Shown here: one piece after another, positions 3,901 to 11,367 of the stretch | How positions within the stretch are numbered: the stretch's first letter is position 1 | How the letters are laid out: each line of letters starts with the position of its first letter | Origin: a virus | Virus genome (UHGV): UHGV-1341758 | Direction: 5' to 3' (one strand) | Length of the DNA: 14,557 bases | Translations under genes and position numbers: made by a program | The notes under the pieces: generated by a model | What the model was told of the DNA's origin: nothing | What the model saw: only the letters and a program-made list of their open reading frames with translations | The model's database searches: none

Positions 3901-4420
3901 CGATCCACCCGCCCACGTTTTCACCGGCCTTAGCTGCAACATTGGAGGCTTTCGCGATTTCAGTTTTCACCACATCAAGGTGTGATGGTGAAATGTCCGG
4001 ATATTTACGCTGTAATGTCAACGGCACACGCACAAGTATCCCCGAAATCTCCTGTGCCACACGTTGCAGAATGAAGGTAAACAGTTCAGTTTCCAGCACC
4101 ACTCCGTCTTCACGGGCATTTTTCAGTTCCTGCGCATCTGCCTGCGCTTTTGTGAGCCGGTAGCGTTCATAGTCAATGGTGCCGGGTTGTAAATCTGACT
4201 CCGCTGCCGCACGCAAATCGGCCAGTTCTTTGCGGAGCTTTTCGTTTTCGATATCAGTTTCCCTCTGCGCATACCACTGAATTGCCATGGCAGTATCAAA
4301 TACAGATTCAATGCCCTTACTGCCTTTGGAGACGCAAGGGAGCCCCTGAGACTGCCAGCGTTCAATCGTCCGCGGGTCCACGTTAAAAATTTCGGCAAGC
4401 CTCTTTTTATTAACCTTCAT
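3872..4420 (-). CDS. nu1: Terminase small subunit (lambda gpNu1-like), N-terminal winged-HTH cosB-binding domain
   Basis: From ATG at 4420-4418 the protein reads [28 protein letters not shown]..., which aligns with lambda Nu1 (MEVNKKQLADIFGASIRTIQNWQEQGMP...); C-terminal DLQPGTI(D/E)YERYRLT(K/R)[12 protein letters not shown] is conserved. The ORF-track extension to 4660 reads through the AT-rich cos region (MIIIIIL...) and is not real. Confidence 0.9.
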
Positions 4421-4660
4421 AGAACAACCCATTATCAAATACAAGGCCCGACATGAAAACGCCAGAAAAAGGCATTTTCGGACACTTTCATGTCGGACAT
4501 TTATGAATGCAATATTAAAAAAAAACAAAAAGTTATATTCGAGAAGTACCGACACGATTTTCCCTGAAAAATTTTCATAAATAGTGAAAAACCGCGAGGT
4601 CGCCGCCCCGTAACCTGTCGGATCGCCGGAAAGGACCCGCAAAATGATAATAATTATCAT
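4421..4660 (-). other. cos packaging site: cosB (R-like sites plus AT-rich IHF-like spacer), cosN, and a putative cosQ side
   Basis: Minus-strand sequence upstream of Nu1 reads GGGCGGCGACCTCGCGGTTTTTCACTATTTATGAAAATTTT, almost identical to the lambda left end/cosN as recalled. Between cosN and Nu1 are repeated TGTCGG/TGTCCGA motifs (about 4446-4457, 4472-4502, 4541-4557) flanking an AT-rich block (about 4501-4540), the R3-I1-R2-R1 layout of lambda cosB. Confidence 0.8.
4597..4608 (-). other. cosN 12-nt cohesive-end sequence (GGGCGGCGACCT on the minus strand)
   Basis: Exact match to the lambda 12-nt cohesive end (recalled), in the expected position and orientation relative to Nu1. Confidence 0.8.
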
Positions 4661-5999: not shown

Positions 6000-6467
6000 T
6001 CATCGAAGGCATTGCGTCCTGATGTATTCCTGAAGCGTTCTCAGTGCTGTTTGGTCGCGGATAATTCCGTCCCGGATACCGAGAACGTTTCGTCCAGCAA
6101 CTGGAGAGAGTTCGACGGTGGCATCATTGCCCATGCCGGAGGCGCTGGAGGTTTCAGCTGAGGATGGCACAGGGCATTTTCCTTTGACGAGCACCCGACC
6201 ACCATTATCAAGCTTGCGCCGAAGAGCATCATTTTCAGCTTTCGCATCAGCTAACTCCTTCGTGTATTTTGCATCGAGCGCAGCAACATCACGCTGACGC
6301 ATCTGCATGTCAGTAATTGCCGCGTTCGCCAGCTTCAGTTCTCTGGCATTTTTGTCGCGCTGGGCTTTGTAGGTAATGGCGTTATCGCGGTAATGATTAA
6401 CAGCCCATGACAAGCAAACGATGATGCAGATAACCAGAGCGGAAATAATCGCGGTTACTCTGCTCAT
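6000..6467 (-). CDS. Rz: Spanin inner-membrane subunit Rz (i-spanin)
   Basis: First ~83 residues look identical to recalled lambda Rz ([83 protein letters not shown]); the C-terminal half diverges. ATGA overlap with R. Confidence 0.9.
6041..6247 (-). CDS. Rz1: Spanin outer-membrane lipoprotein subunit Rz1 (o-spanin), embedded in Rz in another frame
   Basis: ORF wholly inside Rz in a different frame, with lipobox-like LIMVVGC and a proline-rich segment KPPAPPAW (lambda Rz1 has VVGC and KPPPPPAW). The true start may be an internal Met. Confidence 0.8.
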
Positions 6468-6940
6468 ACCTCAATCTCTCTGACCGTTCCGCCTGCTTCT
6501 TTGAATTTTGCAATCAGGCTGTCAGCCTTATGCTCGAACTGACCGTAACCAGCGCCCGGCAACGAAGCCCAGATATTGCTGCAACGGTCGATAGCCTGAC
6601 GAATATCACCACGATCAATCATCGGTAAAGCGCCACGTTCTTTAATCTGCTGCAATGCCACAGCGTCCTGGCTTTTGGGGGAGAAGTCTTTCAAACCAAG
6701 CTGTTTACGGTAAGCATCCCACCAACGGGAAAGAAGCTGGTAGCGTCCGGCGGCTGTTGATTTGAGTTTGGGGTTTAGCGTGACAAGTTTGCGAGGGTGA
6801 TCGGAGTAATCAGTGAATAGCTCTCCGCCAACAATGACGTCATAACCATGATTTCTGGTTTTCTGCCGTCCGTTATCAGTTCCCTCTGACCACGCCAGCA
6901 TATCGAGGAACGCCTTACGTTGATTATTGATTTCCACCAT
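6464..6940 (-). CDS. R: Endolysin R (lambda-type lytic transglycosylase)
   Basis: 158-aa ORF matching recalled lambda R throughout ([51 protein letters not shown]...). Confidence 0.95.
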
Positions 6941-9696: not shown

Positions 9697-9865
9697 CGTC
9701 TTCTTCCTCGTACATTGAGCTATTCGGATCGCTCATCAGTTCTGCGCAGCAGTGCTCACACACGTGAACTTCCAGCACATGCAGCTTCTGACCGCAGTTA
9801 GCGCACGTTAAAGCCCGCTCGACGCTTTCTTTCTGGTATTGAAGGGATTGGGATGGGCTAAGCAT
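9689..9865 (-). CDS. ninF: NinF (small zinc-ribbon protein); absent from the ORF track because it is under the length cutoff
   Basis: Manual minus-strand translation gives a 58-aa protein, [58 protein letters not shown], close to recalled lambda NinF. CxxC...CxxCC cysteine pattern. TAATG overlap with the upstream gene and an 8-nt overlap with NinG. Confidence 0.75.
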
Positions 9866-10230
9866 TATTGGATTCTCTGCATCATGAGAAAGACAATCAT
9901 GGCGGCGCGGAGGGGATTTTCATGTATAGCTCGCTTAGATTTACAGTAGTCCACACCGCGTGCACCCCACTCGTCTTCATCGAGATTGATAATGCTAATC
10001 CTGTATTTTTCAATAATCGGCCATGCGTCTGCTGGGTTTGCGCATGGGTTAAAGGATCCGCGCTCAACTTCTACTTCAACTGCGTCTCCGTTTACAATGT
10101 CTCCCTCAAATGAGACAAACACCATATCGCCATTCTCACCTTCTTTGTAATCCGGTGATCCGTTATGAATGGCTTCGAATACCGCCACGTTAATTTCAAA
10201 ATCACTTAACTGTGAATAATCCATTGTCAT
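9865..10230 (-). CDS. Acidic hypothetical protein between NinE and NinF (position matches P22 NinX)
   Basis: ORF 9865-10266 in the track. ATG at 10230-10228 forms an ATGA overlap with the NinE stop, so [15 protein letters not shown]... (121 aa) is the likely product. No recognisable motif; the NinX label is by gene order only. Confidence 0.5.
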
Positions 10231-10403
10231 TTCCTCGCACGATATCTTAGCCACCGGATATCCCACAGGTGAGCTGTGTAATTGAAGGTTTTTACGTCAG
10301 ATTCTTTTGGGATTGGCTTGCGTTTATTTCTGGAGCGTTTCGTTGGAAGGTATTTGCAGTTTTCGCAGATGATGTCGGTGAAACTTCGTCGCTGTCGCCT
10401 CAT
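10227..10403 (-). CDS. ninE: NinE
   Basis: From the internal Met at 10403 the 58-aa product [58 protein letters not shown] matches recalled lambda NinE. ATGA overlap with the methyltransferase stop. Confidence 0.8.
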
Positions 10404-10927
10404 GCCGCCCTCCTGACGCCCTGCCCGATCGCCATCAATGCCGCTTTGGATACGGTAGTAAACATCCGTCGAGGACTGATGAACGGTCGCCAAATCAGCA
10501 GCATGGAGCCTTTGCTGTTTCCCTTCTTCTCCAGCCCTGTCGATGGTTCGATAAAATTAATCCGTCCATCAGTGATAATGCGAACTTCGTCGACACTCTC
10601 CAGAGCCTTGCTGAACCATCCGACTGACATATCCTCTGGCACAAGCATAACTACCGTCTGTCGCTGTTGTATGCACTGCTCAGCGGCTTTTTCCACCCAC
10701 GGCCTGATATTGCTGTACGGTGGGTTATTCCAGATTGCACCGTGGCTTACCCACTCAGAATTGAGCGCGTCGTCGGCCTCAGTTAGCCAGTGAGCACACA
10801 GAGCATTTTTGTCGCTCGCTGCCGAATCCAGCCAGAATCCAAACTCAATATCCAGTGCATCAAAAAGCCAAAGCGGCGTTTGCCAGCAGTCCTTGTCGTG
10901 TGCTGGCGTATTTGATTTGATAGTCAT
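10400..10927 (-). CDS. Phage orphan N6-adenine DNA methyltransferase (Dam-like)
   Basis: Contains WNNPPYS (motif IV, (D/N)PP(Y/F), of N6-adenine methyltransferases) and an N-terminal [13 protein letters not shown]...FWLDSAAS segment typical of small phage adenine MTases. ATG at 10927 gives ATGA coupling to NinB (175 aa); the track start at 10987 is an alternative. Confidence 0.85.
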
Positions 10928-11367
10928 GCAGCCCGATATCCCCATCGCGCTTTCCATTCGAGAGCCAGTCGCGCTTCGTCTGACCACTTAACGCCACGTT
11001 CTGTACCGAATGCCTGTATAAGCTCTAATAGCTCCGCAAATTCGCCTACCCGCATCCTGCTGGTTGACTGGCCTATTACCACAAAGCCATTCCCGGCAAG
11101 GTTAGGAACAACGTCCTGCTGCTTTAAGGCTGCGGTAAACACACACTTCCAGCTTTCTGCATCCAGCCAGCGACCATGCCATTCAACCTGACGCGAGACG
11201 TCACCTAAGCAGGCCCATAGCTTTCTGTTTTGGTCTAAGCTGCGGTTGCGTTCCTGAATGGTTACTACGATTGGCTTGGTTGGGTCTGGAAGGATTTGCT
11301 GGATAGCTTGAATGGCGTTCTGCTGATGAATGGGGCTTCTTAGTTCAAACGTTAGTTTCCTCACCAT
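10924..11367 (-). CDS. ninB: NinB (Orf-family recombination mediator)
   Basis: 147-aa ORF matching recalled lambda NinB (..KLTFE(L/I)RSP.HQQNAI.A.QQILPDPTKPIVVTIQERNRSLDQNRKLWACLGDVSRQVEWHGRWLDAESWKC...). Confidence 0.9.
   Translation of the reverse strand: MVRKLTFELRSPIHQQNAIQAIQQILPDPTKPIVVTIQERNRSLDQNRKLWACLGDVSRQVEWHGRWLDAESWKCVFTAALKQQDVVPNLAGNGFVVIGQSTSRMRVGEFAELLELIQAFGTERGVKWSDEARLALEWKARWGYRAA

Follow-up and report, generated by a model that had tools for sequence, protein, structure and literature searches.

The closest described counterparts of the site analysed here are the cos sites of the lambdoid phages 21 and lambda, which are served by the gp1/gp2 and Nu1/A terminases, respectively; the primary genetics paper on the lambda/21 contacts is reportedly that of Sippy et al. 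2015. Lambda and 21 discriminate against each other in packaging more than 1000-fold, and this discrimination is due to differences in the recognition helix of the small terminase subunit (TerS) and in the R sites (PMC4669245). The contacts and clashes have been defined genetically as TerS residues 20 and 24 and base pairs 56 and 59 of R3; for instance, Glu24 of lambda clashes with the G:C pair at bp 56 of phage 21 R3 (PMC4669245). Termination at the downstream cos is independent of cosB specificity (Feiss et al., PMC4669245). A docking model has IHF bend the DNA by 180 degrees at I1, with a dimer of TerS DNA-binding domains spanning the bend on R3 and R2; this arrangement puts TerL on cosN (PMC9026076). 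As references for the phage 21 site with its cosB-21 we used GenBank records M81255 and OL657228, which annotate R4/cosQ, cosN, I2, R3, I1, R2, R1 and I0.

A complete lambdoid cos site was identified on the minus strand within positions 4421-4660 of the window, by which we mean the whole stretch of DNA that was analysed (14,557 nucleotides, 14.5 kb). Its subsites are arranged in the order cosQ, cosN, I2, R3, I1, R2 (inverted) and R1, followed by the TerS gene (Table 1). The subsite order in phage 21 is the same, with the ATG also at bp 189. A megablast search of the region against phage records returned phage 21 as the best named match, with 95-97% identity over the aligned part. Counted from the cohesive end, the first 82 bp show no difference from phage 21, and over the 188 bp from cosN to the ATG the two sequences differ at only six positions. 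These comprise one extra T in the T-run between I1 and R2 (T9 versus T8), three substitutions on the outer edge of R2 or adjacent to it, including one inside R2, and two differences between the ribosome-binding site and the ATG (one substitution and one deletion of 1 nt). The substitution inside R2 replaces C by A at R position 14 (window position 4499), where each of the three R sites of phage 21 has C. From centre to centre, R3 and R2 are 58 bp apart in the window versus 57 bp in phage 21. The cohesive end GGGCGGCGACCT is present only once in the 14.5 kb of the window. I1, read as AAACAAAAAGTTA, has one mismatch to the IHF consensus WATCAANNNNTTR; matches to this consensus were not above chance in the window, so that the assignment of I1 rests on its positional identity with phage 21.

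Table 1. Subsites of the cos site and the adjoining terminase genes. Base pairs (bp) are counted with the initial base of the cohesive end GGGCGGCGACCT as bp 1; coordinates are those of the window.
Feature	bp	Window position (strand)	Sequence	Remarks
cosQ heptamer, packaging-termination subsite	-30..-24	4638..4632 (-)	GGGTCCT	sequence and distance from cohesive end as for cosQ annotated in phage 21 OL657228; conserved in lambda
cosN nicking site	~-5..+17	4592..4613 (-)		contains the 12-nt cohesive end; extent as established for lambda
5' cohesive end, 12 nt		4608..4597 (-)	GGGCGGCGACCT	12/12 versus lambda, 21 and phi80
I2, between cosN and cosB	29-43	4580..4566 (-)	TTATGAAAATTTTTC	equals I2 annotated in phage 21 M81255
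cosB R3, putative critical TerS binding site	50-65	4559..4544 (-)	AATCGTGTCGGTACTT	16/16 versus annotated phage 21 R3, at the same bp
I1, IHF-like site	74-86	4523-4535	TAACTTTTTGTTT (minus strand) / AAACAAAAAGTTA (plus strand)	placed as I1 annotated in phage 21
A/T run beyond I1, 9 nt		4517-4525	T9 (minus strand)	
cosB R2	108-123	4486..4501 (+)	TTTCATGTCGGACATT	inverted relative to R3 and R1; 15/16 versus phage 21 R2
Partial R2-like copy		4487..4473 (-)	AAGTGTCCGAAAATG	direct repeat directly after R2; also in phage 21, unannotated there
cosB R1	151-166	4458..4443 (-)	TTTCATGTCGGGCCTT	16/16 versus annotated phage 21 R1
ATG of TerS gene (gene 1)	189	4420 (-)		
Gene 1, TerS, 182 aa		3872..4420 (-)		Pfam PF07471 Phage_Nu1, 271.9 bits (gathering cutoff 30), model positions 1-163 of 164
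Winged-HTH recognition region of TerS		4343-4378 (-)		
Gene 2, TerL, 642 aa		1972..3900 (-)		Pfam GpA_ATPase and GpA_nuclease

The genes next to the site are likewise of the phage 21 type. Over their full length, TerS is 98.4% identical to phage 21 gp1, from which it differs by A30V, D67A and A179T, and TerL has 98.8% amino acid identity to gp2. Gene 2 overlaps the end of gene 1 by 29 nt, as in phage 21, and the W-like gene and the portal gene that follow TerL encode proteins with 98.5 and 97.5% identity to their phage 21 counterparts. Identity of TerS to lambda Nu1 is 52%. The recognition helix of TerS is identical to that of phage 21 gp1, and within the 54-residue small-terminase chain whose structure has been solved (PDB 7lwr_A, equal to residues 1-54 of phage 21 gp1) the only difference is A30V. 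At the positions that have been defined genetically, TerS has E20 and S24, the state of phage 21 (Q20 and E24 in lambda), and R3 has G at both bp 56 (4553) and bp 59 (4550), again the state of phage 21 (T56 and C59 in lambda). All four determinants of discrimination between lambda and 21 are thus of the 21 type here. We conclude that the region is almost certainly the cos site of a lambdoid (pro)phage with the DNA-packaging specificity module of phage 21, working in the way published for that module. An earlier note on this DNA, made from the sequence alone, had proposed that the repeats and the recognition helix reflect co-evolution of packaging specificity of the kind that separates lambda from phage 21. 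The mechanism it had in mind was right, but the analogy understates the case, as the pair present here is the phage 21 pair itself; the packaging specificity is one that is already known, and nothing here points to a new one.

Between cosN and the ATG at 4420, a 16-bp unit with TGTCGG as its core occurs three times. The only perfect matches to the 16-mer of R1 and R2, TTTCATGTCGGRCMTT, in the 14.5 kb were R1 and R2 themselves, which form the core of an imperfect inverted repeat of 27 nt. When up to three mismatches were allowed, the window contained three matches against 0.45 expected. R3 is more diverged than R1 and R2, and the pattern common to all three is TC-TGTCGG---CTT. The 8-mer core CATGTCGG, with one mismatch allowed, was not enriched over chance in the window, so that the evidence for the repeats lies in the full 16-mer, its arrangement and its conservation. 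A second motif listed in the earlier note, TGTCCGA, is present and has two sources: R2, which is inverted and shows the motif when the minus strand is read, and the partial R2-like copy next to it. A search for a pattern of R3 and R2 separated by 30 to 55 nt (CGTGTCGGTACTT and GTCCGACATGAAA) gave no match in a collection of genome contigs, probably because that collection holds one genome per species.

Compared with lambda, the cohesive end, cosQ and the overall architecture of the site are the same. The distance from cosN is the same for lambda R3 and R3 of the window, and in register the two share 11 of 16 positions; differences include bp 56 (T in lambda, G here), bp 59 (C in lambda, G here) and bp 62. 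The two are homologous sites that have diverged, and not unrelated repeats. The core of the lambda R sites is CGTTTCC versus CGTGTCGG here, and the lambda TerS helix, RTIQNWQEQG, differs from that of the window; the two small subunits are members of one family, Phage_Nu1. The cos site of phi80 has the same cohesive end and the same architecture with three R sites; its R sites are, however, of the CGTTTCC type and its helix is RTIQNWQDQG, which places phi80 in the group of lambda and not in that of the window. Alignment of the cos regions of lambda, 21 and phi80, the comparison that the earlier note had recommended, accordingly paired the window with 21. It also bore out what the note had described: a cohesive end and cosN like those of lambda (GGGCGGCGACCT is identical in lambda, 21 and phi80), followed by repeats of a non-lambda kind between cosN and the Nu1 homolog. 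The CGTTTCC-type sequence that it gave for lambda was correct against the lambda locus, and the 14-residue stretch of the recognition helix that it set against SIRTIQNWQEQGMP of lambda was exact. The repeats are not lambda R sites, as no site of the lambda type (CTGTCGTTTCCTTTCT type) was found in the window with up to three mismatches.

Two further systems combine a lambda-like cosQ and cosN with other arrangements. Phage N15 has only one R site and lacks an IHF site, whereas the window contains a full complex cosB (PMC4669245, PMC9026076). The cos sites of PICI lack R repeats and Rpp redirects TerS, in contrast to the window with its R repeats (PMC4669245, PMC9026076). A cos site of the PICI/Rpp type was rejected because both R repeats and a TerS gene are present.

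By analogy with the published work on lambda and 21, dimers of gp1 would bind the R sequences through their winged helix-turn-helix, and an IHF-induced bend at I1 would bring R3 and the inverted R2 face to face, with R1 as an accessory site. Bound to the R sites, gp1 would anchor gp2 at the adjacent cosN, where gp2 is expected to make the staggered nicks that generate the 12-nt cohesive end GGGCGGCGACCT. Packaging would then run leftward in window coordinates, and termination would be served by cosQ, cosN and I2 of the next cos. Since cosN and cosQ are common to lambda, discrimination, expected here at the published level of more than 1000-fold, would rest on cosB and the TerS recognition helix, with E20 and S24 set against G56 and G59 here and Q20 and E24 set against T56 and C59 in lambda. 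In terms of annotation, the (pro)phage joins the packaging-specificity group of phage 21, and from this membership it can be predicted whether a given helper phage or co-resident prophage could package its DNA or not. As the earlier note shows, sequence alone is enough to recover the logic of lambda/21 specificity.

The region is widespread. It matched 4001 of 5426 complete Escherichia coli genomes, with a coverage of at least 80% in 806 of them. The best of these matches were 98% identical; the exact sequence of the window is therefore absent from that collection, while the type is commonplace. A protein-guided scan of IMG/VR identified 404 contigs encoding a relative of gp1, of which 80 were analysed. 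The TerS recognition helix was invariant in all 80 loci, and V30 was found in 25 of them. The exact lambda cohesive end was present in 73 loci, in which the stretch from cosN to cosB occurred as 20 variants. The commonest variant was the canonical phage 21 sequence (26 of 73), and another, found in locus L006, was identical to the window. The R2 allele of the window, with A at R position 14, was present in at least 14 of the 73 loci, and the length of the T-run in relatives varied from T7 to T10. In one relative (L044) the cohesive end carried the change T12C, and in another (L052) unrelated DNA replaced cosN and half of R3, leaving a cos site that is truncated and defective.

Five more distant relatives (L081-L085) have other cohesive ends as well as diverged cosN and spacer sequences. 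In these loci I2, R3, the core of I1, R2 and R1 are invariant or nearly so, a pattern that, at the level of sequence, reads as a phylogenetic footprint of exactly the subsites annotated as functional. The partial R2-like copy at 4487..4473 is unconserved in the same five loci, in which R3, R2 and R1 are kept, and for this reason it is probably not a functional R site. Four of the five (L082-L085, at about positions 385-603) combine a Gifsy-like cohesive end, GGGCGGCAGCGG, with R sites of the 21 type and an identical recognition helix. In the fifth, L081, the cosN region is very different.

As R sites and recognition helix are both unlike those of lambda, R2 has an A where all three R sites of phage 21 keep a C, and gp1 has the change A30V, the locus could be taken for a packaging specificity that is undescribed and distinct from both lambda and phage 21. 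We rejected this explanation, to which we give virtually no credence, because the critical site R3 does not differ from that of phage 21, nor does R1, and because the helix and all four published determinants are of the 21 type. The R2 allele and V30 both occur commonly as natural polymorphisms, and each is also found apart from the other states; the five more distant relatives, for example, pair V30 with an R2 of the phage 21 type. It is also very improbable that the site is a non-functional relic in a cryptic prophage that has decayed. Defective lambdoid prophages are numerous, E. coli chromosomes very often carry the module, and the relative L052, with both R3 and cosN destroyed, provides an example of such decay. 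Here, however, every cos subsite is intact and has the correct spacing, the open reading frames of genes 1, 2, W and B are full-length and their products 97.5-98.8% identical to those of a viable phage, phage 21, and, within the 14.5-kb window, the adjoining Q, lysis and nin genes are intact too.

Compatible with a phage 21 module, and rather unlikely, is a site of the 21 type in which the extra T and the change at R2 position 14 have altered IHF dependence or affinity. In its favour are the spacing of R3 and R2, 58 bp versus 57 bp, and the A at a position that is C in all phage 21 R sites. Against this, T-runs ranging from T7 to T10 among natural relatives indicate that spacing changes of a single bp appear to be tolerated, and in lambda genetics alterations of R2 have milder effects than those of R3. 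The explanation that we prefer remains that of a phage 21 packaging module working as published.

The module is joined to a right arm of different origin. The last informative site of the lambda type is at bp -11 (4619) and the first of the 21 type at bp +18 (4591). The switch from lambda-type to 21-type sequence thus falls between 4619 and 4591, which locates the crossover within 28 bp that contain cosN. Head genes of the left arm are like those of phage 21, whereas the sequence to the right of cos, at higher coordinates, resembles lambda and HK630 and not phage 21. Phage 21 is accordingly unlike the window to the right of cosQ; its lysis genes encode a pinholin and a SAR endolysin, in contrast to the lambda-type S/R/Rz genes of the window, and its late region has tRNAs, whereas no tRNAs were found in the window. 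In the 80 relatives, the same cosQ-cosN-cosB-21 segment adjoins some eight right-end sequences (taken as the 120 bp left of the cohesive end) that are unrelated to one another, which suggests repeated exchange at the conserved cosQ-cosN sequence. This variety of right arms fits the established mosaicism of lambdoid phages, in which conserved segments are points of exchange. Based on the 28-bp crossover, the number of right ends and the occurrence of the same cosB and helix together with a Gifsy-like cohesive end, we tentatively consider cosQ-cosN as a possible preferred recombination joint, by which the 21-type module, consisting of cosB, terminase and head genes, would be moved onto unrelated lambdoid right arms, though the balance is against it. 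If this were the case, the identity of the nicking site and that of the recognition site would assort independently. In a minor variant of this idea, the allele with A at R2 position 14 and T9 may tune IHF dependence. Beyond correct annotation the importance of the locus is slight. Many right arms on one packaging module, joined within about 30 bp of cosN, are an example of lambdoid mosaicism that agrees with established ideas.

The right arm encodes DUF3950 and DUF1398 proteins, a lambda-type Rz/R/S lysis cassette, Q, a NinI-like phosphatase, NinG, NinX, Dam and a DnaB-like helicase. A protein of 158 amino acids encoded at 6464-6940 (-), which from its sequence we take to be a lambda R-type endolysin, had no Pfam match at E ≤ 0.001, unlike the neighbouring S and Rz; the likely reason is a library gap or the threshold and not a biological oddity. 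The nin region contains genes for a Dam-family N6-adenine methyltransferase and a P22 NinX-like protein, at 10400-10987 (-) and 9865-10266 (-), respectively, which are accessory genes absent from lambda.
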